Below, in pieces: positions 1,493 to 28,183 of a stretch of 64,000 nucleotides of DNA. Within the stretch, counting starts at the first letter, position 1; each line of letters opens with the position of its first letter. Source of the stretch: a bacterium (GTDB lineage: Bacteria; Babelota; Babeliae; Babelales; UASB340); assembly GCA_030629005.1 (NCBI GenBank), contig DAOVPV010000006.1:3472-67471 (forward strand). The letters are read 5' to 3'. A program made the position numbers and the translations under genes. The notes beneath the pieces were generated by a model, which saw only the letters and a list, made by a program, of their open reading frames with translations, was not told the origin of the DNA and made no database searches.

Positions 1493-2635
1493 ATGACACA
1501 ATTTTCCCAAAAAATATATTGGGGATTCCTTATACTATCTTTTTCATCATGCAATTTAAAAAAAATAAACTGTATGGAACTTGTTAGGAAATTAAGTCGA
1601 GAATTCTTAACATTTGTATCATCAGATGATAACAAACATAAAACAAATCCTAAATATAAAATCCCAAACTCAAAGATTGCCAATGAATTTGTTCTATTTT
1701 TACAAGAACGATCAGGCTTAAACTTGCTAAAGGTTTTATTCACCATGAAGTCAATTGATCGCCTATTTTCAAAATACACAGCAATTGATTTATCAATGAG
1801 CAAAGACGAGATTATTGACAAAAATAAAATAGAATGGATCAAAGAAACATCAAATGAAAATACAAATCCAGAGCAATTATTTTATTTTATATTTAGCAAC
1901 CGTTTATATGAAACAACCCCAATCAATGAAAAAACAAAAGTTTTTGCCTTTATGTCTACAGAAATAAACGAAAGTATTTATCAATTAATTTTAGTACTTC
2001 TCGAAAGTCAAACGTTAAACGGAAATAATATTCTACAAATCATTAAAGTATTGAAAAAAAACATTCTTTTTTACCTAGAAATAAAATACCTATTAAAAGC
2101 CCTACAAATAAAACATTTAAAAGCTCAAGAAAAAAAACTCCAAAAGCAAATCTTGTGGTTTTATGACAAAGGCGAAATAAAAACCTGGGATATTCAAGAA
2201 TTACATAATCCACACCCAATAAAACTTGAATATTATAAAATACAAGACAAAATAACCAGGCTAAAACAATTTTTTTTAAAAAAAGATAACGTAAAAAAAT
2301 TAAATTTGATAACAAAAAAATATACAACATCCCCATCGTTTCTAGATCTCACAAAACAAGAACCTTGTCTATATTATTTACTAAATATAGAAACAAAACG
2401 AAAAATCAAACAAGCACTATCTGAAGAAAAAATAGAATGGCCTGCAGAACTTGAAGAGCTTGCACTTTATGAATATTTAATAAATTACATTGAAAAATAT
2501 ATTATGGAATTTCTAAATGTACTTACATACATATTTAATGATGAAACTTTTTTTGAATTATTAACACAAAAAATAGAGGAATGCACCTTGAACGAGAAAT
2601 CTTTAAAACAAAAATATGATGTTATTTTTATATGA
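1493..2635 (+). CDS. hypothetical protein, possible lipoprotein
   Basis: 380-aa ORF with a G-rich RBS (GGGGGGG) 5 nt before the ATG. The N-terminus IYWGFLILSFSSC looks like a signal peptide with a lipobox. The rest is K/E/I-rich and I recognise no family. Confidence 0.55.
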   Translation: MTQFSQKIYWGFLILSFSSCNLKKINCMELVRKLSREFLTFVSSDDNKHKTNPKYKIPNSKIANEFVLFLQERSGLNLLKVLFTMKSIDRLFSKYTAIDLSMSKDEIIDKNKIEWIKETSNENTNPEQLFYFIFSNRLYETTPINEKTKVFAFMSTEINESIYQLILVLLESQTLNGNNILQIIKVLKKNILFYLEIKYLLKALQIKHLKAQEKKLQKQILWFYDKGEIKTWDIQELHNPHPIKLEYYKIQDKITRLKQFFLKKDNVKKLNLITKKYTTSPSFLDLTKQEPCLYYLLNIETKRKIKQALSEEKIEWPAELEELALYEYLINYIEKYIMEFLNVLTYIFNDETFFELLTQKIEECTLNEKSLKQKYDVIFI

Positions 2636-2700
2636 AAAAAGGCATACTTCGCATTTTTCTAACAAATGTTAACTTACAATTTAGTCAATTCCTTTAAAAG

Positions 2701-2732
2701 GCTGGCCTGCCATACGTAGCCTTGGCGAAGTC
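2701..2732 (-). repeat. GC-rich tRNA-trailer repeat, short form
   Basis: GCTGGCCTGCCATACGTAGCCTTGGCGAAGTC is a version of the 2921-2976 and 14129-14193 module with an internal deletion. It abuts the tRNA-Ala 3' end. Confidence 0.7.
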
Positions 2733-2808
2733 TGGTGGAGGTAAGCGGAGTCGAACCGCTGGCCTTCCGCTTGCAAAGCGGACGCTCTACCAACTGAGCT
2801 ATACCCCC
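2733..2808 (-). tRNA. tRNA-Ala (anticodon UGC), CCA encoded
   Basis: The reverse complement GGGGGTATAGCTCAGTTGGTAGAGCGTCCGCTTTGCAAGCGGAAGGCCAGCGGTTCGACTCCGCTTACCTCCACCA folds as a cloverleaf. The G3:U70 Ala identity pair is present and the anticodon loop is TTTGCAA. Confidence 0.95.
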
Positions 2809-2833
2809 GAAAATTTCAAGTGGCCGTGCCTTT

Positions 2834-2876
2834 TGCCCTACTTCGCTTTAAAAAGCTACGAAGGGCATACTTCGCG
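2834..2876 (-). repeat. GC-rich tRNA-linked repeat module R2
   Basis: TGCCCTACTTCGCTTTAAAAAGCTACGAAGGGCATACTTCGCG has a close copy at 13833-13871. It contains two TACTTCGC boxes. Confidence 0.7.
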
Positions 2877-2920
2877 TCCTTTCTATCAATATCAGGCTTA
2901 AAACTATCTCTTTTAAAAGA

Positions 2921-3015
2921 CTGGCTTGCCATACGACCTGTCCTACGAAGCCACGTAGGGCGTAGTAGGAAGCCTTTACGCCGTCGCTAAAGCTATGGCG
3001 CACATGGGCGAAGTA
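2921..3015 (-). repeat. GC-rich tRNA-trailer repeat module R1 plus CCA-adjacent box
   Basis: CTGGCTTGCCATACGACCTGTCCTACGAAGCCACGTAGGGCGTAGTAGGAAGCCTT is about 90% identical to 14129-14185. The segment ends in GGCGAAGTA directly against the tRNA-Ile 3' end. Confidence 0.75.
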
Positions 3016-3092
3016 TGGTGGGCCTAAGTAGACTCGAACTACTGACCTCTCCGTTATCAGCGGAGTGCTCTAGCCAACTGAGCTATAGGCCC
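3016..3092 (-). tRNA. tRNA-Ile (anticodon GAU), CCA encoded
   Basis: The reverse complement GGGCCTATAGCTCAGTTGGCTAGAGCACTCCGCTGATAACGGAGAGGTCAGTAGTTCGAGTCTACTTAGGCCCACCA folds as a cloverleaf. The anticodon loop is CTGATAA. Confidence 0.95.
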
Positions 3093-3275
3093 CAAAATTT
3101 CTTAAATTATATATTTATTTTAATACTCTTGCAACATCTTATTATGAAGAAATCGTTTCCCAACATAAAAAACTTCATAATGCAGTATTAATTGACCCTA
3201 TTGTAAATAATTATATATGCTTTCACAAAAGCACGTCCAGTTCTATTTTATAGTACAAAATATTAGGGAGATATC

Positions 3276-3449
3276 ATGAATCCAAATAAAATAAACTCTG
3301 AAAATAATGAGAAAAAATTTGAGAAAAAATATGGTTTTTTTAGAAAAATAAAAAGCATGGCCAGAAACACCAAAAACTTCCTCAAAAACCACTTTCCATC
3401 CCGCACTTGGGGCAAACCTCAAGAAAAAAACAAAGGCCCTAAAATATAA
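3276..3449 (+). CDS. small basic hypothetical protein (57 aa)
   Basis: This ORF is below the length cutoff of the supplied track. An AGGGAG RBS lies 6 nt before the ATG. The product MNPNKINSENNEKKFEKKYGFFRKIKSMARNTKNFLKNHFPSRTWGKPQEKNKGPKI is lysine-rich. A GGGCC/GGCCC hairpin lies about 35 nt downstream. It competes with the antisense ORF 3243-3455. Confidence 0.3.
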   Translation: MNPNKINSENNEKKFEKKYGFFRKIKSMARNTKNFLKNHFPSRTWGKPQEKNKGPKI

Positions 3450-3590
3450 ATACAAACTTTACATATAAAAAAAACAAACATAGGGGCCGAATGGCCCTTG
3501 CTCATTTAATGCTATAATCTATAATAATTAACGAATACTCCTCGCAACAAGCTAATGAAATATCATTCAAGAATTTGATTTTTTATTATT

Positions 3591-3667
3591 ACTGGACCCT
3601 GAAACAAGTTCAGGGTGACACACGCAGAATGCAAATTTGTCATCCTAAACTCGTTTCAGGATCCAGT
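3591..3667. repeat. nested palindromic MITE-like element, copy 1
   Basis: The arms ACTGGACCCTGAAACAAGTTCAGGGTGACA and TGTCATCCTAAACTCGTTTCAGGATCCAGT are 26/30 complementary. Each arm holds its own small hairpin (CTGAA-ACAAG-TTCAG). The element is intergenic, upstream of prfB. Confidence 0.8.
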
Positions 3668-3722
3668 CCTAAATAAAACAGAAAACAACGTGAAATTAAA
3701 ACCCTAAGAGATTAATAAAATT

Positions 3723-4805
3723 ATGTTAATTGATGAATTAAGAGAAAAATTAAAAAATATAGAACCTGCAGTTATTGCCATTAAAGACTTTTGGCAAAAC
3801 TCCAACAATCAAGAAAAATTTCTAGAGCTTGATAAACAAATAAATCAAGAAAATTTCTGGCAAAACCCAGATAGAACAAATATTCTAAAAAAATATCTGT
3901 TTATTAAAAACCTAAAAGAAAATTTTGATGATGTAACTAATTCTTTTGAGGAAAACAAAGAACTAATAGAATTATTTGAAACAAACGAAAAAGAACTTAA
4001 AAAACTTATTGGCGAAATAAATTCATTGGTGAAAAAAACAAAAAAATTTAAACTCGAACTTTTGTTAAACAAACCAGAAGATTTATCCAATTGCTTTTTA
4101 AGTATAAACTCAGGAGCTGGTGGCACAGAGTCTCAAGACTGGGCAAATATGCTTTTACGCATGTATACCCGTTTTTGTGAACGAGAAAATTTTTCTATAG
4201 AAATGATAGATTGCCAGTCCGGGGAAGAAGCCGGCATAAAATCTGCTTCTTTATATATTAAAGGTAAAAATGCTTTCGGGTTTTTAAAAAGTGAAAATGG
4301 TATTCACAGATTAGTGCGTATTTCTCCATTTGATGCAAATAAAAGAAGACATACCTCATTTGCAGCAGTAAGCATCACACCTGAAGTGGAAGAAAAATCT
4401 GTAGAAATAAACGATAACGATTTAAAAATAGATACATTCAAAGCCGGTGGCGCTGGCGGACAACACGTAAACAAAACCGAATCTGCCATAAGAATTACAC
4501 ACATTCCATCAAAAATAGTTGTACAATGTCAAAGCCAACGCTCGCAAGGACAAAATAAACAAACTGCAATGAAAATGCTTGCTGCAAAACTTGTCGCAAA
4601 ACAAAAACAAGAAAAACTCGAAAAAGAACAATCTGTAGTAAAGAAAAAAATTGAGTGGGGTTCACAAATTAGATCTTACGTTCTACATCCATATAAAATG
4701 GTAAAAGACTTAAGAACAAATTATGAAAATCCTCAACCAGAATTAGTGCTAGACGGTAACCTAATGCCAATGATAGAAAAATATTTACTCGAATTTAACT
4801 CATAA
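3723..4805 (+). CDS. prfB: peptide chain release factor 2 (single uninterrupted ORF)
   Basis: The RF2-specific SPF tripeptide (RISPFDANKRRHTSF) and the GGQ motif (GGAGGQHVNKTES) are present. The length of 360 aa is close to E. coli RF2. Confidence 0.95.
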   Translation: MLIDELREKLKNIEPAVIAIKDFWQNSNNQEKFLELDKQINQENFWQNPDRTNILKKYLFIKNLKENFDDVTNSFEENKELIELFETNEKELKKLIGEINSLVKKTKKFKLELLLNKPEDLSNCFLSINSGAGGTESQDWANMLLRMYTRFCERENFSIEMIDCQSGEEAGIKSASLYIKGKNAFGFLKSENGIHRLVRISPFDANKRRHTSFAAVSITPEVEEKSVEINDNDLKIDTFKAGGAGGQHVNKTESAIRITHIPSKIVVQCQSQRSQGQNKQTAMKMLAAKLVAKQKQEKLEKEQSVVKKKIEWGSQIRSYVLHPYKMVKDLRTNYENPQPELVLDGNLMPMIEKYLLEFNS

Positions 4806-4809
4806 AAAA

Positions 4810-4830
4810 TTGGAAAAAACATTTAATGTT
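4810..4830 (+). repeat. 21-nt hairpin-core repeat, copy 2 (intergenic)
   Basis: TTGGAAAAAACATTTAATGTT has 2 mismatches to the consensus. It fills the prfB-tilS spacer, and its ATG is the first in-frame start of the tilS ORF. Confidence 0.8.
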
Positions 4831-5836
4831 CATGATTTTTGATAAATTAGAAAAAGAATTAAAAAATATTATCAACTTAAGCGACAAACCCAAAATTATC
4901 CTGGGCCTTTCTGGAGGGCCAGACTCTGTATTCTTATTTTATTTTTTAAAAAAGCTAGCTCAAGAAAATAAAATACAGTTAATTTGCGCACATCTAGACC
5001 ATGAATGGCGGAAAGAATCTAAATCTGATGTAGAGTTTTGTAAAAATCTATGTAAACAACATAAAATTAAATTTATTTCTAATACAACAAATGAATTAAA
5101 TCTTAATTTAAAATTTAATGGCTCCCAAGAAGAAATCGGCAGAAAATTAAGACGTCATTTCTTTAATAAAGTTTTAAAAGAAAATAACGCAAATTATGTT
5201 GCATTAGCTCATCACCTGCAAGACCAGCAAGAAACATTCTTTTGGAGAATTATTAGAGGGACAACATTAAACGGCTTAATTGGAATGAAAAAACTACAAC
5301 CTCCCTACATTCGGTCTTTATTAGATATAGAAAAAAAAGAAATCTTAAATTATTTAAATAAAAATAATATTACGTATTTAATAGACCAAACGAACGACTC
5401 TGATAAATATTTACGCAATAGGATTAGAAAATATGTAATCCCAAGCTTAGAAAAAGTCGACCCTAGATTTTCTAAGAAATTTGCTACAACTTTAAATTAT
5501 CTACAAGAAGAAGAAGCTTTTATTAAAAAAATCACAGAAAATAGTTTTAATAATCTTTTTAAAAAATCTGAAGAAACATTTAATGTTATAGAACAAAAGA
5601 ATTGTTCAGAAAATAAGTTTATCGGAAATCTCAAAGAATTTTTATCTTTAGATACCGTGTTACAAAAAAGAATTATTATTTATTGGTTGACAAAAGAAAA
5701 GGTAAAATTCAGCCCCAGCAATAATTTCTTACTAGAAATTTTACGATTTCTAAAAAATGAAAATGGCGGAGTTCACAAAATAGACAATAACTTCTCTATT
5801 TATAAAAAACAGAATAAATTCAAAATCACAGCTTAA
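4826..5836 (+). CDS. tilS: tRNA(Ile)-lysidine synthase
   Basis: The PP-loop SGGPDS and HLDHEWR are present, and the tilS-like C-terminal region follows. The start is ambiguous between ATG 4826, which lies inside the repeat, and ATG 4832. Confidence 0.9.
   Translation: MFMIFDKLEKELKNIINLSDKPKIILGLSGGPDSVFLFYFLKKLAQENKIQLICAHLDHEWRKESKSDVEFCKNLCKQHKIKFISNTTNELNLNLKFNGSQEEIGRKLRRHFFNKVLKENNANYVALAHHLQDQQETFFWRIIRGTTLNGLIGMKKLQPPYIRSLLDIEKKEILNYLNKNNITYLIDQTNDSDKYLRNRIRKYVIPSLEKVDPRFSKKFATTLNYLQEEEAFIKKITENSFNNLFKKSEETFNVIEQKNCSENKFIGNLKEFLSLDTVLQKRIIIYWLTKEKVKFSPSNNFLLEILRFLKNENGGVHKIDNNFSIYKKQNKFKITA
5567..5587 (+). repeat. 21-nt hairpin-core repeat, copy 3
   Basis: TCTGAAGAAACATTTAATGTT has 1 mismatch. 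It is in frame in tilS and read as SEETFNV. Confidence 0.9.
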
Positions 5837-5944
5837 CGCTATTATATAGACAAAAACTTAAATAATTTATTTACTTACTCAAAAAAAGTAAAATATATAA
5901 ATATATATAATGTATATTTGGTGGGGATTTTTATTGGGTAAGTA

Positions 5945-7027
5945 ATGAATAATAAAAGAAATAAATTCAAAAAACTTTTTTTAACATCACTTCTATTACA
6001 TACAGTCCTTTTCATTATTTTTATTATTTTTGGATTCAAAAAAGGTCCCAAACCTTTTCAAGTTGTTTTTCTGGAAGATAACGATTTTCCAAAAGAAGAA
6101 AAAAAACTTGTTCAAATGAAAGAACTTGCTGAATTAAAACCAAAAAAATCTATGTTCGGCGCAACAACATTTTATGACGAAATACCACAATTTACTCCAG
6201 CAATATCTCCAATTATTAGTGATAGACAAAGAATTACTAAAGAAACAAAAATAAAAAAGCAATCTGAAAAAATAACATCTAAGATAAAACCAGAAATAAC
6301 AGAAAACCTGGAAGAAAAAATTAAAGGCAAAGCTCAAGAAAATATAATACATAAAGATGAACAAAAAACATCTATCGAATTTGAAGAAAAAAACAAAGAC
6401 AAGTTTATAAATAAACTAGAGCAAGATCTACACACAACAACAACTTACAATATTGCAAAAAATCAAATCGATGAATTGGCAAAAACAGGCAACGATAAAA
6501 TAAACCAAGAAGAAATTGATTCTGCAGAAATCTCAGAATCAACAGATATAATTCGCCAACTAGGAACCGATAGAAAAGACGCAAGCCCTGCACCAAAACC
6601 CAAAAGAAGTATTTTGCAAATAACAAGTGGTTATTTATACAATGCTAAAAACGAAGGAGAATACTGGATACGCCAATATGGTAAAAAAAATGCAATGCCA
6701 GACTTCAGTCAACTACAAGAAAAATCTTATGATGAAAAAATCGAATGGTACTTTCAACAAGAATCTGGAATTAAAACAGCACACATGTCACGAAAAGAAA
6801 GTATGCATCTAATGGATGGATATAAATGCAAACCTGCATTTTTTATATCCATTTCTAAAAACGGAAATATCAATAAAGTAAAACTAGTTAGAAGCTCCGG
6901 ATCAAATAATTATGACAACTATCTTTCAAAAACGCTCAAAACGATGTCAGCTCCCCCAATACCAAAGCATCTATGCAAAAAATACAATAACAAGTATGAA
7001 AAAATATATAATATAAATAATAAATAA
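5945..7027 (+). CDS. TonB/TolA-like energy-transducer protein
   Basis: A basic N-terminus is followed by a TM helix carrying an SLLLH motif and a long K/E/P-rich linker. The C-terminal ~80 aa (VKLVRSSGSNNYDNYLSKTLKTMSAPPIP) resemble the TonB C-terminal domain. Confidence 0.55.
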   Translation: MNNKRNKFKKLFLTSLLLHTVLFIIFIIFGFKKGPKPFQVVFLEDNDFPKEEKKLVQMKELAELKPKKSMFGATTFYDEIPQFTPAISPIISDRQRITKETKIKKQSEKITSKIKPEITENLEEKIKGKAQENIIHKDEQKTSIEFEEKNKDKFINKLEQDLHTTTTYNIAKNQIDELAKTGNDKINQEEIDSAEISESTDIIRQLGTDRKDASPAPKPKRSILQITSGYLYNAKNEGEYWIRQYGKKNAMPDFSQLQEKSYDEKIEWYFQQESGIKTAHMSRKESMHLMDGYKCKPAFFISISKNGNINKVKLVRSSGSNNYDNYLSKTLKTMSAPPIPKHLCKKYNNKYEKIYNINNK

Positions 7028-7087
7028 TATTACCTTTACAAAACTACCGATAATTATTACATTTTAGGCAAAAACAAAAGAGGCGAA

Positions 7088-8518
7088 GTGGCAGAAGTAG
7101 TAATTGTTGGTGCAGGACTAACAGGATTAACTGCAGCATATCATCTAGAAAAAAATAATTTTTACGATTTTAAGATTTTCGAAAAAGAAAATACACCTGG
7201 TGGACTTCTACGCTCTTTTACCAAAGATGGATTTACTTTTGATTTTACAGGCCACCTTTTACACATAAGCAACCCAGATTTTTATAATTTTTTAGACGAA
7301 ACTGCTGGCATCCAAAATTTTCTAGTTCAAAATAGAAGTTCTTTTATACATACAAATAATACATTCACAGACTATCCTTTTCAGACAAACCTTTATGGCC
7401 TTCCTGAAAAAATAATTTATGACGTAATCCTTGGATTTATAAATAGACAAAAAAATACTAGAAATCCAAAAAACTTTCATGAATGGGTACTAAAACATTT
7501 TGGTTCCGGTATCGGCAAACACTTTTTATTTCCATATAATCAAAAACTTTTAGCCTACAATATAAAACAAATAGAACACTCATGGACTGGAAGATTTGTA
7601 CCTTCTACAAACTTAAAAAATATAATTTATGGAGCATTAAATAAAAAAAATGCAAAAACAAACCTAGGTTATAATAGCAAATTTTATTATCCAAAATTCG
7701 GCGGCATACAGTATTTAATAGATAAATTACAAAATAAAATAAAAGCTAAAATAAATACCAACTTTAAACTATTCAAAATCGATCTAAAAAATAAACTTGT
7801 TCTTTTTGAAAATGGTCATATAGAAAAATTTAAACATCTTATTTCAACAATGCCACTAAATAATTTACTTAAATGCTCAATAGATAGGACAAATACAAAT
7901 TTACAAAAACAACACACAAATCTTTTATGTAATTCTGTAATAAACTTTAACTTGGGCTTTAATGCCAAAAATTTCGATACAAATTTTAAAAACAAACACT
8001 GGATATATTTTCCAGAAAAAAAATATCTTTTTTATAGACTAGGATTTTGGAATAACATATGCAAAAACTTAGCGCCAAACAATACATATTCAACATATGG
8101 TGAAGTTTCTTTTATGCCACAAACATCGAAAGAAACATTTAATGTTAAAGATCATAAACAAATAGAAAAATTAACAGAAAACTCAATTAATCAAACTATC
8201 AAATATTTAAATATTAATAAAAAAGACATATTAATAAAAAAAACATTAATACTTAAACATGCATATGTAATTTACAATACTTGGAGAAAAAAATATTTAA
8301 ATACTATTCACAAAGAATTAAAAATGGAAGGAATAAATTCTATCGGAAGATTTGGAGAATGGAAATATTCTAGCATGCAAGAAGCATTTATAGATGGAAA
8401 AAATACAGCTATTAAAATATTACATAATATGAAACAAGTAAGTCCCAAAAATTTTAGCCCCAAAAAAATAGAAGGCCTTATTAAACATGAACAAGCTACA
8501 AAACGTTTACAACAATAA
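7088..8518 (+). CDS. FAD-dependent oxidoreductase (amine oxidase / UDP-galactopyranose mutase-like fold)
   Basis: The ORF has a GTG start. A Rossmann dinucleotide motif VVIVGAGLTGLTAAYHL is followed by GGLLRSF..GFTFDFTGH. It lies next to a sugar-nucleotide epimerase gene. Confidence 0.7.
   Translation: MAEVVIVGAGLTGLTAAYHLEKNNFYDFKIFEKENTPGGLLRSFTKDGFTFDFTGHLLHISNPDFYNFLDETAGIQNFLVQNRSSFIHTNNTFTDYPFQTNLYGLPEKIIYDVILGFINRQKNTRNPKNFHEWVLKHFGSGIGKHFLFPYNQKLLAYNIKQIEHSWTGRFVPSTNLKNIIYGALNKKNAKTNLGYNSKFYYPKFGGIQYLIDKLQNKIKAKINTNFKLFKIDLKNKLVLFENGHIEKFKHLISTMPLNNLLKCSIDRTNTNLQKQHTNLLCNSVINFNLGFNAKNFDTNFKNKHWIYFPEKKYLFYRLGFWNNICKNLAPNNTYSTYGEVSFMPQTSKETFNVKDHKQIEKLTENSINQTIKYLNINKKDILIKKTLILKHAYVIYNTWRKKYLNTIHKELKMEGINSIGRFGEWKYSSMQEAFIDGKNTAIKILHNMKQVSPKNFSPKKIEGLIKHEQATKRLQQ
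8126..8146 (+). repeat. 21-nt hairpin-core repeat, copy 4
   Basis: TCGAAAGAAACATTTAATGTT has 1 mismatch. It is in frame and read as SKETFNV. Confidence 0.9.
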
Positions 8519-9398
8519 AAATGTGTTGGTAACTGGAGGTGCAGGCTTTATTGGTTCAAACATAGTAAAAGAGTTAGTAAAACTTAACACAAATGTCACA
8601 GTGTTAGATAATTTTTCAACCGGAAGCCTGAATAATCTCAAAGACGTGATTAATAGAATAAATATCATATATGCAGATGTAACAAACATTTTTTCATGCA
8701 AAAAAGCAGTCGCAAAAAAAGATATTGTTTTTCACCTAGCAGCATTAACTTCAGTAAACCAGTCAATCCAAAATCCTAACTTGTACTATAAAGTCAATAC
8801 TCAAGGTACTAAAAATTTACTGGAAGCATGTCGGCTTTGTAAGAACAAGATAAAATTTATATTTTCATCTTCAGCTTCTGTTTATGGAACAAAAAATACA
8901 CTTTGCTCAGAAGATGACACTCCAAATCCACAATCACCGTATGCTAAAAGCAAACTGGATAGTGAATTTTTATGCAAAAAATATAATCAAAAATATAATC
9001 TTAATACTGGAATTTTACGGTATTTTAACGTGTATGGAAAAAATCAAAATCCAAACGGAGAATATGCTGCGGTTGTTGCAAAATTTAAATATAATTTAAT
9101 TAATAATTTACCAATTACAATATTCGGTGATGGTAAACAAACTAGAGATTTCATACATGTAGATGATGTTGCCATGGCAAATATCTTACTAGCAACAAAA
9201 GAAGAAATGAACGGTGAAATCATAAATGTTGCATCTGGACAAAGTATAAATTTACTAAAATTAATTTCAAAATTAGAAACAGAACTAAATAAAAAAACTA
9301 CAAAAATAGAATTTCAACCAGCAAAAGTTGGTGATATAAAAAATTCAAAAGCAAATTGCCAAAAATATAAAAATTTAAGGTTTGATTTTCCCTTTTAA
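8487..9398 (+). CDS. NAD-dependent epimerase/dehydratase (extended SDR)
   Basis: VLVTGGAGFIGSN and the YAKSK catalytic motif are present. It overlaps the upstream gene by 32 nt. GTG 8523 is an alternative start. Confidence 0.85.
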   Translation: MNKLQNVYNNKNVLVTGGAGFIGSNIVKELVKLNTNVTVLDNFSTGSLNNLKDVINRINIIYADVTNIFSCKKAVAKKDIVFHLAALTSVNQSIQNPNLYYKVNTQGTKNLLEACRLCKNKIKFIFSSSASVYGTKNTLCSEDDTPNPQSPYAKSKLDSEFLCKKYNQKYNLNTGILRYFNVYGKNQNPNGEYAAVVAKFKYNLINNLPITIFGDGKQTRDFIHVDDVAMANILLATKEEMNGEIINVASGQSINLLKLISKLETELNKKTTKIEFQPAKVGDIKNSKANCQKYKNLRFDFPF

Positions 9399-9470
9399 AC
9401 CGTTATAATCTTAGTAAATCTTAGTCTGCGGGACTAAAGAAATTTATATGAATATTCAGAGGATAAAAAC

Positions 9471-10601
9471 ATGACAAAAAAAGATTATTACGAGATTTTG
9501 GGCGTATCAAAAGGTGCATCTAAAGACGAAATTAAAAAATCATACAGAAAAATAGCTTTAAAATACCATCCTGACAAAAACCCAGACAATAAGGAAGCAG
9601 AAAATAAATTTAAAGAAGCATCAGAAGCCTACGAAGTTTTATCCAACGAACAAAAAAGAACAAAATACGATCAATTCGGCCACTCTGGCATGCAAGGCGG
9701 CTCAGACTTCCATGAATATGCAGATTTTGGAGATATTTTTTCAAATTTTGGAGATATCTTCTCGGATCTTTTTGGAGCAGGACAAGCCAGACAAACAAGA
9801 AGTAAATCCGGCATAACACCTCAAAGGGGACATGATCTTTCTTTTAACGTAGAAATTTCATTAAAAGAATCTTATCTCGGTGTAAAAAAAGGTATTTATA
9901 TATCTCACTACGTAAGTTGTACTACATGCAATAATTCTGGCTGTACGGCGGGTACAAAACCCGAAAGGTGTATATCATGCCACGGAACCGGTGCAGTAAA
10001 TTACAGACAAGGTTTCTTTTCATTTTCTCAACCATGTAACAAGTGTGGGGGCCAAGGCTTTATAATAAAGACTCCATGTCCAAAATGTAAGGGGCAATCT
10101 CGAACACGAACAAGAGAGACTATAACCGTAAATATACCCGCTGGAGTTTATAACAACGCAGAACTTAGAGTAAAATCAAAAGGTGATGCAGGCGTTTATG
10201 GCGGAAGCTCTGGAGATCTTTACATAAACTTAAGCGTAAAACCTAATAAAATATTTTGGAGAAAAAATAACAATCTTGTAACAAATCTAAATTTAACATA
10301 TCCACAACTAGTTCTTGGTTGCCAAGTAGATATCGAAAATATCGATAGCCAAACTCATACAATAAAAATTCATAAGGGTTGCCAAATAGATGAAGATGTC
10401 GTTCTTCCAGGAAAAGGCTTTGCAATACCAGGTAGCTTAGCTCGAGGAAATTTAATTGTTATTACAAAATGCCATATACCAAAAAAATTACCATCAAAAG
10501 CAAAAGAACTTTTATTAGAGTATGCAGACAAAATAGGTAACAATGTCGAAAGCAACTCTGAATCGGGAATATCAGGTTTTTTTAAAAAATTTTTAGGATA
10601 A
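9471..10601 (+). CDS. dnaJ: molecular chaperone DnaJ
   Basis: A J domain with HPD is followed by a G/F region and four CxxCxGxG zinc-finger repeats. No dnaK or grpE is adjacent. Confidence 0.95.
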
Positions 10602-10702
10602 ATTAAATTTATATTATTTTTTTTGTTTTAAAAAATAATATATTTGTTAAAATCTTTTAACATGTAAAGTTTTTAGTTGTGGTTATTTTGAAAGGAATTT
10701 GT

Positions 10703-11437
10703 ATGAAGAAGTTTTTAAAACTTATTGCATTTTGTTTATTATTTTCTGTAAGTGCAAACGCTGTAAGCAAAATTACATTAGAAAAACTCGAAAATATTGT
10801 ACGAAAACTTGAAGATTTGAACAATAATCCTGAAAATCCCGAAAATATAAATAATAAAATAAAAAATATCGAAACAGAATTTGAACTACTACAAAAAGAA
10901 GATCCAAATTTAGAAAACAATGAACTTTCTGAAAAAACAAAAGTTTTAATTGAAACCGTAAAATCTTTTAATGCAGCAGAAAAAAAAGCTTTCTTAAAAA
11001 AATATAAAAAAGAAATTGCTGTTTTAACTGCATTAGTCGCTGCAAGTGCAGCTGGTGGATTTGCTTTAAAGAAAGCATCAGCTAAGCAAGCTGCAAAAGA
11101 ATTAGATAGAATAGAAAACAAAGAAGAATCTAATCGATTTATGAAATGGGCTTCAAAACATGCTAAATTTCTAAAAAAAGAAAAGAAAGAAGAAAAAGAA
11201 AAAGTTGAAGAGATCGTAGAAAATTCAGAAAGCAATATCGAAGAGACGCCAATAAGAATAAGCCGATTGGATCGATTTTGGAATTTTGTTACTCGAGCTA
11301 AAATAGCAAATTCAGAAAGCGATATCGAAGAAGCACCAATAAAAACAGGCCTATTGGATCGATTTTGGAATTTTGTTTCTCGAGCTAAATCTGAAACATC
11401 TGATTCTAGTGAATTATCTGATTCTTTCGACAATTAA
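10703..11437 (+). CDS. secreted coiled-coil protein with 29-aa tandem repeat
   Basis: The signal peptide MKKFLKLIAFCLLFSVSANA begins at an internal ATG of ORF 10679-11437. An 87-bp tandem duplication at 11222-11395 encodes two SES(N/D)IEE.PI....LDRFWNFV.RAK units. The mirror ORF on the - strand was rejected. Confidence 0.7.
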   Translation: MKKFLKLIAFCLLFSVSANAVSKITLEKLENIVRKLEDLNNNPENPENINNKIKNIETEFELLQKEDPNLENNELSEKTKVLIETVKSFNAAEKKAFLKKYKKEIAVLTALVAASAAGGFALKKASAKQAAKELDRIENKEESNRFMKWASKHAKFLKKEKKEEKEKVEEIVENSESNIEETPIRISRLDRFWNFVTRAKIANSESDIEEAPIKTGLLDRFWNFVSRAKSETSDSSELSDSFDN

Positions 11438-11453
11438 TATAATCAATAATATT

Positions 11454-11497
11454 AAAGAGGATGCTAAGCAACTGCTGCTTAGCATCCTCTTTTTTGT
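11454..11497 (+). terminator. rho-independent terminator between convergent genes
   Basis: A perfect 15-bp stem AGAGGATGCTAAGCA / TGCTTAGCATCCTCT is followed by TTTTTTG. Confidence 0.85.
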
Positions 11498-11506
11498 TTA
11501 TAAAAA

Positions 11507-12769
11507 CTATACAACCAAAACTTTTAAAAATTCTTCTAAAGAAGTATCTCCTGAATAAACTTTCTCTAAAGCATCAGCCTCTATAAATTTCATATTTCTT
11601 TGTAATAGCTTTTTTTTAATTTGTGCAAAATCAGATTTTTTAGAAATTAAATCTCGAAGTTCATCATCTACTTTTAACAATTCGAAAACACCTAAGCGCC
11701 CCTTATAACCAAGATTAAAACAGTGATTACAACCACACGGTCTATTAATTTCACTCAAATTAATATTTTCTAAATTAATATTTTTATTTTTAATATATTC
11801 CATTTCTTGATCTGTAATAGCATCTTGAGATTTACAATTATTACAAAGTTTACGAACCAATCTTTGAGATAAAACACCAGACAATGCCGCATTAATTAAA
11901 TAAGGGTCAACGCCCATATTAACTAATCTTGTAATAGAACTAACTGTATCATTGGTGTGTAAAGTACTAAAAACCAAATGCCCCGTTAACGCTGCTTCTA
12001 TAGCAATTTTGGCTGTCTCCTTATCTCGTATTTCTCCAACCATTATAATATCCGGATCTTGTCGTAAAATAGAACGTAAACCTTTTGGAAAAGTAAAACC
12101 GGACTTTTCATTTATCTGACTTTGAACAACACCATCGATGTTATACTCAACAGGATCTTCCATTGTAACAATATTTTTCTGGCCATTATTAAGATATGAC
12201 AATATAGAATACAAAGTCGTCGTTTTACCAGAGCCAGTTGGCCCTGTTATTAAAAAAAATCCATGAGGCCGCCCGACTAAATCTTGCAAACAAGAAACCA
12301 TTTTTGAATTCATACCAAGATTATCTAGGCTAATTTTATTTTTAGAAGCATCAAGTATGCGTATAACCATCTTTTCGCCATAAATAGTTGGAAATGTAGA
12401 AATACGCATATCAACCAAATTATGATCCGACGGTCCCCTAAAAACATTTGCCAAAATTTTGCCATCTTGAGGCATACGCTTTTCAGCAATATCTAAACCT
12501 GACAAGATTTTCAATCTCGAAATAATAGACATACCTATATCAGAATCTATAGAATCTTGATCATACAAAACACCATCAATCCTATAACGAACTCTTAGAT
12601 TTTCTTGATTCTGTTCTAAATGAAGATCTGATGCATTATAATCTACACCAATAAATAAAAGGGAATCCACCAAATCTATTACTTGATCATTGGGAATTCC
12701 CTTTTTTAATTTTTCTTCTTTAGAAAAAAGACTATAAACAAACTCTCTCTCTGCCTTTTTTTCCGCCAC
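11507..12769 (-). CDS. GspE/PilB-family secretion or type IV pilus ATPase
   Basis: Walker A GPTGSGKTTT, MVGEIRD, GHLVFSTLHTND and a tetracysteine motif (CNNC...CNHC) are present. It is short (420 aa) and lacks the long N-terminal domain. Confidence 0.9.
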   Translation of the reverse strand: MAEKKAEREFVYSLFSKEEKLKKGIPNDQVIDLVDSLLFIGVDYNASDLHLEQNQENLRVRYRIDGVLYDQDSIDSDIGMSIISRLKILSGLDIAEKRMPQDGKILANVFRGPSDHNLVDMRISTFPTIYGEKMVIRILDASKNKISLDNLGMNSKMVSCLQDLVGRPHGFFLITGPTGSGKTTTLYSILSYLNNGQKNIVTMEDPVEYNIDGVVQSQINEKSGFTFPKGLRSILRQDPDIIMVGEIRDKETAKIAIEAALTGHLVFSTLHTNDTVSSITRLVNMGVDPYLINAALSGVLSQRLVRKLCNNCKSQDAITDQEMEYIKNKNINLENINLSEINRPCGCNHCFNLGYKGRLGVFELLKVDDELRDLISKKSDFAQIKKKLLQRNMKFIEADALEKVYSGDTSLEEFLKVLVV

Positions 12770-12776
12770 TATTAAT

Positions 12777-13184
12777 TTATCCTAATTTATATCCAATTAA
12801 AAAACCAACAGTACAAGAAACAAAAGTCACCAAATTTTGCTTAATCCACTCAAAAGCAGTATTCAAAAGCATTCCAAAATCTGATGTTGGATCAAGGCCT
12901 AAAAGAAGGTTTAAAGCAGTCCAATCTATAGCTAAAACATTTTTATACTCAAAAACCAAAACTATTACCATTGCAAATAAAATAGTAAAAAAAACAAATT
13001 TAAAATATTTTTTAAATAAAAATCCAATAGCAAAGCCTAAACCAAAATATACTGCAGCCTGAACAGCCTGAGAAGACGATCCTCCAATTTGTTCCGACCA
13101 TTTTTTTATATCAACAGCCTCCCAAATAGACTTAATCCAATTTATAAAACTTTCGAATCTTCCCGGAGCAATGGTATCTTGCAT
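12777..13184 (-). CDS. small integral membrane protein, FUN14-like
   Basis: 135 aa with 3-4 hydrophobic helices. GLGFAIGFLFKK and the C-terminal GFLIGYKLG resemble the FUN14 family pattern. Confidence 0.55.
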   Translation of the reverse strand: MQDTIAPGRFESFINWIKSIWEAVDIKKWSEQIGGSSSQAVQAAVYFGLGFAIGFLFKKYFKFVFFTILFAMVIVLVFEYKNVLAIDWTALNLLLGLDPTSDFGMLLNTAFEWIKQNLVTFVSCTVGFLIGYKLG

Positions 13185-13321
13185 ATTCTACTCCCCGATA
13201 TAAAATAAAAAATCAAACTTAACAAAAATAAACCTAACAAAAATAAATAACAAAAAACCAGATTAATAGAAAATATTTTAAATACTATATTTAAATCTAT
13301 AAAAAAATAAAAATTTTACAT

Positions 13322-13363
13322 AAAAAAAATTGCAGGTCAACAAAAGTTTCCTGCAATTTTTTT
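13322..13363 (-). terminator. rho-independent terminator after hup
   Basis: The hairpin ATTGCAGG / CCTGCAAT is flanked by an A-run and a T-run, so its form is bidirectional. Confidence 0.75.
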
Positions 13364-13392
13364 ACCTAAAATTAAAAAATTTAGTCGCTTAA

Positions 13393-13665
13393 TTAACGAA
13401 CTAAATCTTTTAATTTTTTTCCTGGCTTAAACTTAGGAACATTCTTTGAAGGAATTTGCATTTTTTTGCCAGTAGCAGGATTAATACCTGTTCTAGCTTT
13501 TCTCTTCATTACAGAAAACGTTCCAAAGCCTGTTAAAACAACATTTTTTTTCTTTTTTAAAGATTTTCCTACTGATTCTATAAATGCTTCTAAAACATCT
13601 TTACAAGCGGTTTTAGACAACTTTGTTGTTTTTGCCATCATATCTATCAAAGCGGCTTTATTCAT
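13393..13665 (-). CDS. hup: DNA-binding protein HU
   Basis: 90 aa. The sequence MNKAALID...GFGTFSV..R.AR.GINP.TG is the typical HU/IHF fold signature. Confidence 0.95.
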   Translation of the reverse strand: MNKAALIDMMAKTTKLSKTACKDVLEAFIESVGKSLKKKKNVVLTGFGTFSVMKRKARTGINPATGKKMQIPSKNVPKFKPGKKLKDLVR

Positions 13666-13832
13666 ACATAACTCCTAAAATTCTGGCATGATTTCTAATT
13701 AGTCAACACAAACACACAAACAACACAAACTTTTTATAAGCATATCTACGATGTATATTGACATGATTTTTCTTTGTCAAGAAATTGCATAAATAATCGC
13801 TACGCCAATCGTAGCTTAATCAAATTTCTATT

Positions 13833-13871
13833 AGCCCTACTTCGCTCTAAAGAACTACGAAGAGCACACGG
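13833..13871 (-). repeat. GC-rich tRNA-linked repeat module R2
   Basis: AGCCCTACTTCGCTCTAAAGAACTACGAAGAGCACACGG is a copy of 2834-2876. Its TACTTCGCTC (13838-13847) is the perfect complement of the tRNA-Leu trailer at 13927-13936. Confidence 0.7.
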
Positions 13872-13936
13872 CAGAATAAACTCCGCTACTTCATCCCAAG
13901 TAATTTACTTGTAAATCATATCGAGGGAGCGAAGTA

Positions 13937-14024
13937 TGGTGCCGAGGGCCGGACTCGAACCGGCACAGGTTTAAAACCCGAGGGATTTTAAGTCCCTTGC
14001 GTCTACCAATTCCGCCACCCCGGC
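13937..14024 (-). tRNA. tRNA-Leu (anticodon UAA), long variable arm, CCA encoded
   Basis: The reverse complement is GCCGGGGTGGCGGAATTGGTAGACGCAAGGGACTTAAAATCCCTCGGG...GGTTCGAGTCCGGCCCTCGGCACCA. The anticodon loop is CTTAAAA. Confidence 0.95.
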
Positions 14025-14128
14025 ATATAATAACCGTTATAATTATGTACAATTTTTAAATATTAGCAACATTTTTTTGTTTTATTTTTTAGAAAAAAAA
14101 TTTTAGTGAATATTTTAAATTGAAGAAA

Positions 14129-14193
14129 TGGCCGTGCCATACGACTTGTCCTACGAAGCCACGTGGGGCGTAGTAGGAAGCCTTGGCGAAGTA
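14129..14193 (-). repeat. GC-rich tRNA-trailer repeat module R1 plus CCA-adjacent box
   Basis: The sequence is TGGCCGTGCCATACGACTTGTCCTACGAAGCCACGTGGGGCGTAGTAGGAAGCCTTGGCGAAGTA. It has an internal imperfect hairpin around the palindrome CCACGTGG. It abuts the tRNA-Cys 3' end. Confidence 0.75.
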
Positions 14194-14267
14194 TGGAGGC
14201 GGCACCCGGAATTGAACCGGGGATAGCGGTTTTGCAGACCGCGGCCTTACCACTTGGCTATGCCGCC
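14194..14267 (-). tRNA. tRNA-Cys (anticodon GCA), CCA encoded
   Basis: The reverse complement is GGCGGCATAGCCAAGTGGTAAGGCCGCGGTCTGCAAAACCGCTATCCCCGGTTCAATTCCGGGTGCCGCCTCCA. The U73 discriminator typical of tRNA-Cys is present. The 5' end lies 6 nt after the miaB stop codon. Confidence 0.95.
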
Positions 14268-22596: not shown

Positions 22597-22619
22597 AACT
22601 TACATAAATTTATTTAATA

Positions 22620-22699
22620 ACTGGATACTGAAACAAGTTCAGCATGACAATTGAAATACCAAGTCCTCTTGTCATTCTGAACTTGTTTCAGAATCTAGT
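22620..22699. repeat. nested palindromic MITE-like element, copy 2
   Basis: The arms are AACTGGATACTGAAACAAGTTCAGCATGACA and TGTCATTCTGAACTTGTTTCAGAATCTAGT. It is intergenic between the NurA-like and Fic genes. Confidence 0.8.
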
Positions 22700-24047: not shown

Positions 24048-24857
24048 TTAAAAATCTTTACCAAAAGATAAATCTGCTAATTCTTGATAAAGCTCTTCAT
24101 CTTCTTTTAATTTCTCAGGCAATTCCATCTTTTCCTCTTTTTCTACATCATCAGATTCTTCATCATCTGGCAAATCCAAAATCATTTTTTCATCATCAAT
24201 AATCTTCTCTTCATCTTTTGGCTCTTCTGCAATAACTTCTTCTATTATTTCAACTTCAGGCTCTTCAACATCTTCTGTTATTTCAACTTCAGGTTCTTCA
24301 ATCTCTTGCTCTTCAATCTCTTGCTCTTCAAACTCCTGCTCTTCAACCTCTTGCTCTTCAAACTCCTGAGCTACAGGCTCAACAACAATCTTTTCTTCTA
24401 TTATTTCAACTTCAGGTTCTTCAACTTTTTCTATAACTTCTTCGACAACCGGCTCTGCAACCTCTTGCTCTTCAACCCCTTGCTCTTCAACCGTTGATTC
24501 AAAAACACTTGGCTCTTCAACATCTTCTGTTACAACTTCAGCTACGGGCTCAACAACAATCTTTTCTTCTATTATTTCAACTTCAGGTTCTTCAACATCT
24601 TCTGTTACAACTTCAGCAACAGGCTCTACAACCTCTTGCTCTTCAACCTCAGGTTCTTCAACTTTTTCTATAACCTCTGTTACAACCTCAGCAACAGGCT
24701 CAGCTTTAATCTCTTCTTCAACAGCCGGCTCAACTACCGACGCCGTTAATTCCGAATCCGAAAATTCGGAACCTAAATCAAAACCGGCTTCTGAATTTAT
24801 AAAAGCTATAAATAATATTTGCACTATTATTAATAATAGATAAATTCTTTTATTCAT
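24048..24857 (-). CDS. secreted, extremely acidic E/V-rich repeat protein
   Basis: A signal peptide MNKRIYLLLIIVQILFIAFINSEAG is followed by repeated EPEVEIIEEKIVVEPVAEVVTEDVEEP units. Identical 50-nt blocks occur at 24376-24425 and 24547-24596, spaced 171 nt (57 codons) apart. Confidence 0.75.
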   Translation of the reverse strand: MNKRIYLLLIIVQILFIAFINSEAGFDLGSEFSDSELTASVVEPAVEEEIKAEPVAEVVTEVIEKVEEPEVEEQEVVEPVAEVVTEDVEEPEVEIIEEKIVVEPVAEVVTEDVEEPSVFESTVEEQGVEEQEVAEPVVEEVIEKVEEPEVEIIEEKIVVEPVAQEFEEQEVEEQEFEEQEIEEQEIEEPEVEITEDVEEPEVEIIEEVIAEEPKDEEKIIDDEKMILDLPDDEESDDVEKEEKMELPEKLKEDEELYQELADLSFGKDF

Positions 24858-28158: not shown

Positions 28159-28183
28159 AGCAAGAATCCTTATTTTTTTATAA

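Follow-up and report, generated by a model that had tools for sequence, protein, structure and literature searches.

Repeats of the REP, BIME and REPIN type (RAYT, TnpA_REP) are short, GC-rich, imperfect palindromes outside genes. They fall into many subfamilies, cluster with their orientation alternating and may be nested in each other; they presumably function in single-strand hairpin form and are transcribed along with the genes at whose 3′ ends they lie. The element described here is alike in these respects. However, REPs are confined to a single species or genus and lie scattered behind protein-coding genes, whereas the element lies base-exactly at the CCA of genes for tRNA and tmRNA, has nearly the same sequence across phyla and appears to lack an unpaired GTAG tag on the 5′ side of its main hairpin. 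The miniature elements derived from IS200/IS605 (PATEs) are single-strand elements built on hairpins, always found immediately 3′ of a short specific target that is recognised through base pairing with a guide next to the hairpin. By analogy, the TGG of the element would read CCA; unlike PATEs, it has no separate left-end and right-end hairpins and no TnpA or TnpB nearby, and its choice of target goes beyond a 3-nt word. Mitochondrial GC clusters, double-hairpin elements and Rickettsia palindromic elements are GC-rich mobile palindromes that invade compact AT-rich genomes and nest. We know of none that is tied to CCA ends; they insert in many contexts, coding regions included, unlike the CCA-bound element.

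The CGTC-tagged REP superfamily, which includes RPE-4 and RPE-6 of Rickettsia (Di Nocera et al. 2013, PMC3733652), resembles the element in spanning several phyla, in its CGTC-like tag (compare ..TTCGTC-TGG in G-type copies of the element), in its 3′ CCA tail and in having no dedicated transposase known. Its members have 8–9-bp stems starting with A-T pairs and 4–5-nt loops, and are not reported at tRNA ends (PMC3733652). The element departs from this description: the stem of its hairpin 2 is 3–5 bp, its main hairpin combines an outer stem of 3 bp with a fixed 3 × 3 internal loop and a GC clamp, CGTM is half paired, and the 5′ CCA belongs to the RNA gene. A different repeat, at 3580, 22609 and 28175 of the window (the whole 64,000-nt stretch of DNA analysed), looks like a canonical CGTC REP and fits the superfamily description. 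Theta ribozymes, which are minimal HDV-like ribozymes, are structured RNAs that start within a few nucleotides of a tRNA 3′ end and are proposed to release the tRNA, although only 4.5% of theta-associated tRNAs encode CCA (PMC10879173). The element, by contrast, includes CCA in its structure, lacks a nested double pseudoknot, matches neither HDV nor hatchet in Rfam and was not found on viral contigs.

The box and its hairpin in the window

The four tRNA genes of the 96-kb Dependentiae-like scaffold, called on the window with ARAGORN and Rfam and all on the minus strand, are each followed directly after CCA by the box (T/G)ACTTCGC (the bases right after CCA are GACTTCGCC in Ala, TACTTCGCC in Ile and Cys, and TACTTCGCT in Leu). 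The other 32 kb of the scaffold hold no further tRNA. On this scaffold, the claim of an earlier, sequence-only reading that every tRNA gene carries the box is borne out; in related Dependentiae loci, about half of the neighbouring tRNAs (those not chosen by the search) are without the element. GCGAAGTM occurs nine times in the window against 1.32 expected, a count reached in none of 100 shuffles, and eight of the nine copies are inside tRNA trailers. The ninth, GCGAAGTA at 25632–25639 just past the stop of an ORF, has no B box and no match to model R1 and is taken as chance, as is an ACTTCGC at 7083–7089 for the same reasons.

The box forms the 5′ arm of a hairpin built from modules, CCA-KAC-TTC-GC-(loop or extra stem)-GC-TTC-GTM-TGG-C-loop-G-CCA, with the RNA gene ending at the first CCA. 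In the single-strand form, a 6-bp closing helix, CCAKAC/GTMTGG, takes in the CCA of the tRNA itself and encloses a 3 × 3 pyrimidine internal loop (TTC/TTC), then a GC/GC clamp with a variable hairpin. The small hairpin 2 (TGGC-loop-GCCA) comes after the main hairpin and ends in another CCA. CGTM stands upstream of hairpin 2 and GTAG in type-b units (..TTCGTAGGA), both partly paired in the main helix. The GC content of the element is about 60%, compared with 30% for the genome. The window contains three full copies and one partial copy, and the minimal unit of 33 nt is a short imperfect palindrome, as expected of a REP or REPIN. A search of 103 kb of scaffold with model R1 gave no match beyond the four trailers. 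The features of the window are as follows (MFE, minimum free energy).

2641–2652, minus strand: distal A′ box GCGAAGTATGCC, complement of the Ala box; the MFE fold uses this long-range helix
2703–2735, minus strand: minimal type-a element, CCA GAC TTC GC CAAG GC TAC GTA TGG; R1 44.8 bits, E 2e-9
2733–2808, minus strand: tRNA-Ala(TGC), ARAGORN and Rfam; its CCA (2735–2733) forms the first three bases of the closing helix of the element
2821–2875, minus strand: second module of the Ile-Ala spacer; R1 match on the plus strand at 2836–2870, E 0.04
2922–3018, minus strand: composite type-a element after Ile; R1 23.5 bits, E 8e-4; the MFE fold (−35.1 kcal/mol) closes exactly CCATAC/GTATGG
3016–3092, minus strand: tRNA-Ile(GAT), ARAGORN and Rfam; promoter-like TTGCAA-17-TATAAT upstream at 3134–3106
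13799–13815, minus strand: terminator-like hairpin GCTACGATTGGCGTAGC with a T-rich tail, past the Leu trailer
13834–13939, minus strand: Leu trailer; MFE −32.5, z −2.4; R1 weak, 11.6 bits, E about 1
13937–14024, minus strand: tRNA-Leu(TAA), ARAGORN and Rfam; own promoter-like TTGCTA-16-CATAAT at 14069–14042
14129–14196, minus strand: type-a element after Cys; R1 24.7 bits, E 4e-4; terminal hairpin 2 TGGCACGGCCA
14194–14267, minus strand: tRNA-Cys(GCA), ARAGORN and Rfam; starts 6 nt past the stop codon of a miaB-like gene

After the minimal Ala element, in which the K:M position is a G.A mismatch, hairpin 2 (TGGCAGGCCA) comes next. The helix CCATAC/GTATGG of the Ile element encloses two nested hairpins, one of reverse type (GCC-ATA-GC-TTTA-GC-GAC-GGC, about 2977–3002) and one of type b (TCC-TAC-TAC-GC..GC-TTC-GTA-GGA, about 2941–2970), and is followed by hairpin 2 (TGGCAAGCCA). 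The second spacer module is made up of an A′ box, GCGAAGTA (2868–2875), a hairpin-2-like GGCACGGCCA (2821–2830) and an imperfect hairpin, TGCCC-TTCGTAGC..GCGAAGTA-GGGCA (2834–2868). In the Cys element, a type-b hairpin (about 14149–14178) is nested between GCTTC and GTATGG. The Leu A box TACTTCGC (13929–13936) has no regular B box; there is a near partner, GGGATGAAGTA (about 13887–13897), and a distal hairpin, GCTC-TTCGTAG..GAGCGAAGTA-GGGC (13834–13865), whose GAGCGAAGTA pairs with the box over 10 bp.

The sequence-only reading suggested that the box could close a long stem with a distal complement around a GC-rich insert. The complements are present at 2645–2652, 2868–2875, 2839–2846 (previously placed at 2841–2848) and 13838–13845, and the 10-bp pairing of 13927–13936 with 13838–13847 in Leu is perfect; the Cys trailer has no distal complement. 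However, the distal GCGAAGTA is a second, alternative partner, and the regular partner is the nearer GCTTCGTMTGG. In Cys and Ile, the insert is made up of related hairpin modules, present as additional nested copies.

Distribution, covariation and signs of copying

Genome contigs were scanned with a pattern anchored on the T-arm, CCA and box only. At least about 40 true tRNAs were found, all with the same B box and hairpin 2, and the carriers, in a motif-seeded scan with a biased taxon list, are Dependentiae, CPR, Planctomycetota, Acidobacteriota, Kiritimatiellae, Cloacimonadota, Omnitrophica and some proteobacterial MAGs; almost all carrier genomes are MAGs. Of the genome-contig matches listed, two thirds were false positives; they fell within a single conserved gene that codes for protein (..CATGTTCGACTG..CCAGACTTCGCC..) and were not used further. 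Metagenomes were scanned with a tRNA-independent 23-mer from which CCA and K had been left out, also motif-seeded, and this gave at least 124 matches. CCA and K stand upstream of the 23-mer in 117 of the 124 matches listed; among the same 124, at least 77 adjoin the end of a tRNA called by ARAGORN (at least 15 amino-acid types) and 11 adjoin the end of an Rfam-confirmed tmRNA, exact to the base. The collected loci hold more than 160 descriptor matches. The element is not peculiar to this genome but belongs to a family that spans many phyla and follows tmRNA too. Type-a copies occur almost solely at tRNA or tmRNA 3′ ends and are not, as REPs and REPINs are, dispersed outside genes and mostly after protein-coding genes; related type-b hairpins are also found away from tRNAs. 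As a negative control, the gapped pattern gave 96 matches on viral contigs, none at a tRNA and one preceded by CCA; these matches are essentially all chance, in coding DNA, and a phage-borne element was rejected. About 20 copies are preceded by conserved sequences that end in CCA (X1–X4), for which Rfam (gathering and E-value thresholds), relaxed ARAGORN, motif searches for RNase P, SRP and 6S RNA, RNAalifold and RNAfold gave no identity.

In the set of at least 124 metagenome matches, K and M covary (T-A 87, G-C 27, T-C 2, G-A 0; Fisher p = 2e-24), although this could stem from two propagated subfamilies and not from many independent compensatory changes. In alignment A2, 98% of cells pair, compared with 19–38% in slid controls. 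Hairpin 2 covaries as well (TGGT..ACCA, TGGCC..GGCCA). The test for RNA-level selection, G:U against A:C, gave 2 against 1, the variable stems being nearly all Watson-Crick, and the folding z-scores of single trailers are modest (−0.01 to −2.4).

Several features point to copying. Identical 33-mers stand behind many different tRNAs, and head-to-tail tandem copies begin after the GCCA of the element itself. The window and loci L212 and L179 share one nesting point for type-b hairpins, between GCTTC and GTATGG, and reverse-complement modules are present, so that related modules occur in both orientations. Junction-BLAST for empty sites gave one clear orthologous set (L238, L147 and L202), in which the tRNA spacers have 2, 1 or 0 copies. 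The tRNA pair Cys-Leu(TAA) is syntenic in L042, L079 and the window, and its tRNA-Cys site is filled in the latter two but empty in L042; L239 and L240 differ by one nested hairpin. The Pfam labels of the called genes on the 96-kb scaffold include no transposase. If CCA were all that a DNA transposon recognised, copies would be expected at random intergenic CCAs as well, and such copies are essentially not seen; either targeting uses more than the trinucleotide, therefore, or selection removes the other copies.

Possible origin and role of the repeat

The Rfam 15 gathering search of the window returned only the tRNAs, and HDV-like, hatchet, twister and pistol ribozymes were rejected; at E ≤ 10 over 2550–3150 there were only tRNAs and noise, with no ribozyme covariance-model hit or double pseudoknot. 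When an HDV fold was threaded by hand, P2 and P1.1 were absent and the spacing was wrong. An integrase att site or genomic-island junction was discarded because the same sequence follows at least 15 tRNA types and tmRNA and has only CCA in common with the gene. Two further readings were discarded: the ends are not inverted repeats of the kind that accompany IS630/mariner-type TA duplication, and the core sites of an integron attC do not match. Nothing in Rfam 15 resembles the element, and no description was found in the literature on tRNA trailers, on Dependentiae repeats or for the literal sequence; a hairpin repeat at tRNA and tmRNA CCA ends appears to be undescribed.

The explanation we favour, with about even confidence, is a short GC-rich palindromic repeat, REP- or MITE-like, that is copied and pasted onto the CCA 3′ end of stable-RNA genes and probably also serves as a 3′-end cassette, the octamer being its 5′ arm. 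New copies would be inserted 3′ of the terminal CCA of a structured RNA gene, probably by a putative nuclease or transposase that recognises hairpins, like those that mobilise REPs and IS200/IS605 derivatives, and the element would regenerate the CCA target at its own end. As it is co-transcribed with the tRNA, it probably also shapes 3′-end processing: while the trailer is removed, the CCA:UGG helix would define the CCA end or shield it, and the competing distal GCGAAGTM box would offer an alternative pairing. We propose that copies persist at RNA-gene ends and not elsewhere because of this benefit.

An RNA-level device on CCA-3′ ends, be it a new endonucleolytic or self-cleaving module that makes the mature CCA end of tRNAs and tmRNA in lineages whose genes encode CCA or a retro-mobile minihelix joined to the CCA-3′OH of mature stable RNAs by template switching of a reverse transcriptase, is possible but on the whole doubtful. 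Each of the two forms would account for the restriction of copies to the ends of CCA-terminated RNAs, for the CCA at the end of every unit and for the head-to-tail order of tandems. We also consider unlikely a purely cis-acting RNA signal for the maturation of CCA-encoded stable RNAs, with copies kept by selection and not by transposition, whether cut between CCA and K by RNase P (on a minihelix mimic) or by an enzyme of RNase Z or RNase III type, or self-cleaved at the 5′ edge as in HDV-like and hatchet ribozymes. Such a signal would fit the position of the element, which coincides with the mature 3′ end of tRNAs and tmRNAs and is hardly ever found in other places, and its necessary transcription in polycistronic tRNA units (Ile-Ala; L238, with 11 nt to the next tRNA); a stable hairpin adjoining CCA would block 3′ exonucleases, which favours an endonucleolytic cut. 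The sequence of the duplex CCAKAC/GUMUGG is kept across phyla, the variable hairpins have RNA-type loops (UUCG and GCAA, for example), and theta ribozymes directly 3′ of phage tRNAs, with their proposed role in trailer processing, are a precedent (PMC10879173). However, the identical 33-mers at unrelated tRNAs, the nesting, the tandems, the reverse modules and the presence/absence polymorphism need a copying mechanism, and a signal that related genomes lack at about one in two neighbouring tRNAs cannot be required. The trailer of the window tRNA-Leu has no B box, the minimal unit, a plain hairpin of 11 bp, shows no obvious catalytic core, and no Rfam ribozyme matches even at E ≤ 10. A retro-mobile hairpin, whose reverse transcriptase would start at the CCA of the element and switch template to the CCA-3′OH of a tRNA, tmRNA or element RNA, with the hybrid cDNA recombining into the RNA gene, would account in one step for copies only on mature CCA ends, for the terminal CCA and for the head-to-tail CCA-KAC tandems. 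Variants and integrants of the Mauriceville retroplasmid of Neurospora reportedly contain tRNA-CCA junctions made through template switching. We nevertheless find this improbable, as template switching at RNA ends explains neither the two orientations nor the nesting in hairpin loops, and the join on the downstream side is left unexplained.

An intrinsic transcription terminator common to stable-RNA genes is very improbable, even though a run of at least four T within 10 nt past hairpin 2 is found in 23 of 81 distinct copies (28%) from AT-rich carriers, against a background of 8.4% for all CCAs in these loci. Some of the reverse-type modules consist of a long GC stem with a T run behind it, and a consensus scan flags 14145–14131 and 2875–2858 as terminator-like. 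However, just 7 of 41 copies (17%) from GC-rich carriers have the T run, hairpin 2 is only 3–4 bp, CCA within a helix is needless for termination, and the element stands between probably co-transcribed tRNAs (Ile-Ala, and L238 with its 11-nt gap). In the window, a simple terminator role is unlikely: tRNA-Ala lacks a promoter-like site, and its transcription must come through the spacer of 207 nt, rich in elements, that follows tRNA-Ile; of the original proposal, a shared processing or termination structure or a tRNA-3′ repeat, the repeat tied to tRNA 3′ ends is the part that is supported. Chance, or a recent segmental duplication of tRNA genes with their flanks, would account for the shared box itself and nothing more, and its probability is negligible given nine copies against 1.3 expected (0 of 100 shuffles) and the spread over many phyla. 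Segmental duplication, which the sequence-only reading had named as an outcome that would undo its case, is excluded, since the four tRNAs are different genes and the similarity stops at the element.

Meaning for stable-RNA ends

To our knowledge, the loss of the 3′ trailer from precursors of CCA-encoding tRNAs is poorly understood beyond a few model bacteria, including in Dependentiae, CPR, Planctomycetota and Acidobacteriota. A conserved CCA-pairing structure behind tRNAs and tmRNA in all these groups, missing from Rfam, is a testable handle on trailer removal. For annotation, such GC-rich hairpins are easily miscalled in MAGs as small ORFs or as parts of tRNA or tmRNA. If the copied and pasted repeat turns out to be largely selfish DNA, we would know of no earlier bacterial palindromic repeat that is base-exact for the ends of stable-RNA genes; such placement would be a safe-haven strategy, so far known mainly from eukaryotic tRNA-targeting retrotransposons.

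tRNA genes and trailers in the window

The window (GC content about 30%) is contained, as its reverse complement, in a 96-kb metagenomic scaffold (ENA ERZ23498683 scaffold_62), and its closest relatives among the database loci retrieved by motif scans (L numbers) are Dependentiae/Babeliales (TM6) MAGs. The remainder of the 96-kb scaffold holds no tRNA gene beyond the four of the window, and the scaffold is also free of rRNA genes. The usual place of a tRNA-Ile(GAT)–tRNA-Ala(TGC) pair is the 16S–23S spacer; here the pair is isolated.

tRNA genes of the window and the element copies behind them (R1, covariance model of the element; K, the T or G directly after CCA; M, the A or C facing K in the closing helix)
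2733–3092, minus strand: tRNA-Ile(GAT) and tRNA-Ala(TGC), with their own promoter-like site
about 13937–14267, minus strand: tRNA-Cys(GCA) and tRNA-Leu(TAA), just after a miaB-like gene
After tRNA-Ala: minimal 33-nt unit; R1 score 44.8 bits; G·A mismatch at K:M
After tRNA-Cys: unit with a related (type-b) hairpin, TCC TAC TAC GC .. GC TTC GTA GGA, nested between GCTTC and GTATGG
After tRNA-Ile: the same nested type-b hairpin, and a reverse-type module (related, opposite orientation), GCC ATA GC TTTA GC GAC GGC, in the place of the variable hairpin
After tRNA-Leu: A box only, pairing instead with downstream GAAGTA-containing segments

The sequence-only reading had noted one octamer, (T/G)ACTTCGC (the A box), directly after the CCA of every tRNA gene, and this is correct for all four (GACTTCGCC, TACTTCGCC, TACTTCGCT and TACTTCGCC for Ala, Ile, Leu and Cys, respectively). 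GCGAAGTM occurs nine times in the window (1.3 expected), a number reached in none of 100 shuffles. The distal complements proposed to close a long stem with the octamer are also present, with one coordinate wrong by two bases. Because these GCGAAGTM boxes complement the A box perfectly, the A box has two alternative partners, the near B-box type (GCTTCGTMTGG) and the distal box. The distal boxes usually start a second imperfect hairpin (..CCC TTC GTA GC .. GC GAA GTA GGG..), and R1 run over 103 kb of scaffold finds, beyond the known copies, only this hairpin, in reverse orientation. For the Ile trailer, RNAfold closes the whole 90-nt domain by CCAUAC/GUAUGG. The octamer feature is real, non-random and widespread.

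Other repeats occur in the window. The 18-mer GAAGAAACATTTAATGTT, with the palindrome AACAT-TTA-ATGTT, was searched with up to three mismatches and is found eight times (0.65 expected), always on the plus strand and with at most one mismatch per copy.

Copies of GAAGAAACATTTAATGTT, plus strand
489–506, 4813–4830, 5570–5587, 8129–8146, 19691–19708, 23545–23562, 23563–23580, 58521–58538

In four unrelated plus-strand ORFs it is in frame and encodes (E/K)ETFNV, and two of its sites fall within ORFs of the minus strand. Either a DNA motif with a fixed orientation or a repeat inserted in frame could account for it. The segment 24209–24707, inside the minus-strand ORF 24048–24857 (269 aa, no Pfam match), carries degenerate repeats with a 15-nt period (CTCTTCAACCTCTTG..) and higher-order repeats of 75 and 171 nt; the sequence implies a putative low-complexity acidic repeat protein. 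Two tandem 86–87-nt copies (11217–11389, 88% identical) are located inside the overlapping ORFs 10657–11433 (minus) and 10679–11437 (plus).

Anatomy, covariation and placement of the element

A scan of one genome per species used a pattern in which nothing but the T-loop, CCA and the box was specified. Of the matches listed, two thirds were discarded, as they are inside a conserved protein-coding gene. These false matches (about 80 of loci L004–L122, for example L005 5800–5832) are the antisense of a conserved coding segment, ..CATGTTCGACTGNCCNGA....CCAGACTTCGCCNAC.., common in Planctomycetota, Verrucomicrobiota and Bacteroidota, and are a trap for any scan for the element by motif. The remaining matches, about 40, are real tRNAs whose trailer similarity extends well past the box.

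The trailer consensus is CCA | KAC TTC GC [variable hairpin] GC TTC GTM TGG, then C-loop-GCCA. CCAKAC pairs with GTMTGG in the closing helix, and therefore the tRNA's own CCA is inside the helix. Two opposed TTC triplets form a 3 × 3 internal loop; beyond it, the variable hairpin is clamped by GC/GC and consists either of a simple loop of 4–5 nt (CAAG, TAAA, GTAAA) or of a longer stem-loop, at most about 30 nt in length. A second small hairpin follows (hairpin 2, TGGC-loop-GCCA) and covaries (TGGT..ACCA, TGGCC..GGCCA, TGGTC..GACCA). Alternative outer triplets pair as GCC/GGC or CCC/GGG; GTC-type triplets have a mismatch at the middle position. In an alignment of 40 sequences, 98% of cells are paired, as compared with 19–38% when the partner is slid, but as this alignment was partly selected for pairing, the cleaner test is K against M in metagenome 23-mer matches, for which K was left unspecified in the query. 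The counts are T–A 87, G–C 27, T–C 2 and G–A 0 (p = 2e-24).

A metagenome query that contains neither tRNA nor CCA, ACTTCGCCAAGGCTTCGTMTGGC, gave at least 124 matches (at least 120 loci). Among the 124 matches listed, CCA and K stand directly before the element in 117; 77 adjoin a tRNA end (ARAGORN; 15 amino-acid types), a few more follow low-scoring tRNAs, 11 directly follow, base-exactly, the 3′ terminus of a tmRNA confirmed with Rfam, and 5 are cut by contig ends. About 20 follow conserved, non-coding, CCA-ending sequences with no assigned identity, and virtually none of those listed follows a random CCA.

Groups of CCA-ending sequences that precede the element
X1: L148, L154 (twice), L165, L175, L189, L208, L209, L220
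X2: L130, L172, L173, L204, L213
X3: L137, L222
X4: L239, L240

The sequences of these groups are 30–90 nt long (e.g. ..AAAGTTCTAAGATAGTCCACTAGGGCACACCA), are not recognised by Rfam or ARAGORN, and are followed by the element base-exactly, as with tRNAs. Because the groups recur in different contigs, genes are a likelier reading than random sites; small RNAs that annotation has so far missed in Dependentiae-like genomes are one candidate. Copies found by a structural descriptor only, and not by the retrieval pattern, are at tRNA ends in 14 of 24 CCA-preceded matches; the rest are mainly of the related type-b family. Viral contigs, searched with the same gapped pattern, show the picture of chance matching (96 matches, none at a tRNA, one with CCA).

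Distribution, turnover and transcription

The carriers, nearly all uncultured, include Dependentiae (in large number), Saccharibacteria, Doudnabacteria, Kazan and other CPR, as well as Planctomycetota, Acidobacteriota, Kiritimatiellae, Cloacimonadota, Omnitrophica and some proteobacterial MAGs. One identical 33-mer stands behind many different tRNAs in many contigs. A second unit often begins directly after the GCCA of hairpin 2 (L163, L078, L179, L212, L165), type-b hairpins are nested at one common internal point (the window, L179 and, twice, L212), and related modules occur in both orientations, sometimes distant from tRNAs. An orthologous tRNA–tRNA spacer holds two copies in L238, one in L147 and none in L202. 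In the syntenic Cys–Leu(TAA) tRNA pair, the element follows tRNA-Cys in the window and L079, whereas L042 has an empty site there, a comparison which suggests that the inserted unit would run from K through the terminal CCA. The soil contigs L239 and L240 (about 90% identical) differ by a 31-nt hairpin, TTC TTC GTA G TTTTAA C GAA GTA GAA, that is set into another, related hairpin at its loop, which looks like a recent nesting event. Identical 33-mers, tandems, nesting, both orientations and presence/absence together require a copy-and-paste process.

Promoter-like sites precede tRNA-Ile and tRNA-Leu, and tRNA-Cys starts 6 nt past the miaB stop. No promoter-like site was found before tRNA-Ala, and in L238 the next tRNA begins just 11 nt beyond the element; the element is therefore within pre-tRNA transcripts. 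A role in termination, one of the functions first suggested, is unlikely at these loci, as the element could not be an efficient terminator inside their predicted pre-tRNA transcripts. In AT-rich carriers, a T run follows hairpin 2 in 28% of cases (8% by chance).

Relatives and interpretation

No Rfam 15 family covers the element, literature searches by text and by sequence gave no match, and it appears to be undescribed so far. The nearest described kind is the GTAG and CGTC REP superfamilies; CGTC REPs end in a CCA tail and have no known transposase (PMC3733652). The element has neither their defining stem and loop dimensions nor their dispersed extragenic distribution, and the association with tRNA ends is not reported for them in PMC3733652. 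Theta ribozymes (PMC10879173) are the nearest functional precedent, although fold, CCA status and hosts all differ. The window itself has canonical-looking intergenic CGTC REPs:
3580–3620, minus strand: CGTC-REP-like repeat
22609–22649, minus strand: CGTC-REP-like repeat
28175–28215, minus strand: CGTC-REP-like repeat
This GC-rich repeat (TGTC-A-CCCTGAA-CTTGT-TTCAGGG-T-CCA) fits the CGTC description in its tag, 8-bp stem from A–T, 5-nt loop and CCA tail, and the stem covaries between copies (CCCGCA..TGCGGG).

If the element acted purely at the DNA level, copies at random CCAs would be expected, and their absence is the main weakness of such a model. A purely RNA-level signal has its main weakness in the evidence for copying and in the tRNAs that do without it (of the neighbouring tRNAs in related genomes, roughly one in two has no copy), and we regard it as unlikely. 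A reverse transcriptase that switches template onto CCA-3′OH ends would neatly explain the specificity for CCA ends, but we consider this retro-mobile variant quite improbable.

The element is a kind of palindromic repeat whose tie to CCA ends is exact and unusual. Its anatomy, covariation, placement, distribution and turnover are shown by the sequence comparisons. Our own reading, held with even confidence, is that of a REP/MITE-like family whose type-a members (those described here behind CCA) have specialised in the CCA ends of stable-RNA genes. Insertion would be by a hairpin-recognising nuclease, with the TGG of the element reading CCA by analogy with the guides of IS200/IS605. Because the element is co-transcribed, its helix would sequester CCA in the RNA, where it probably acts in the definition or protection of the 3′ end.
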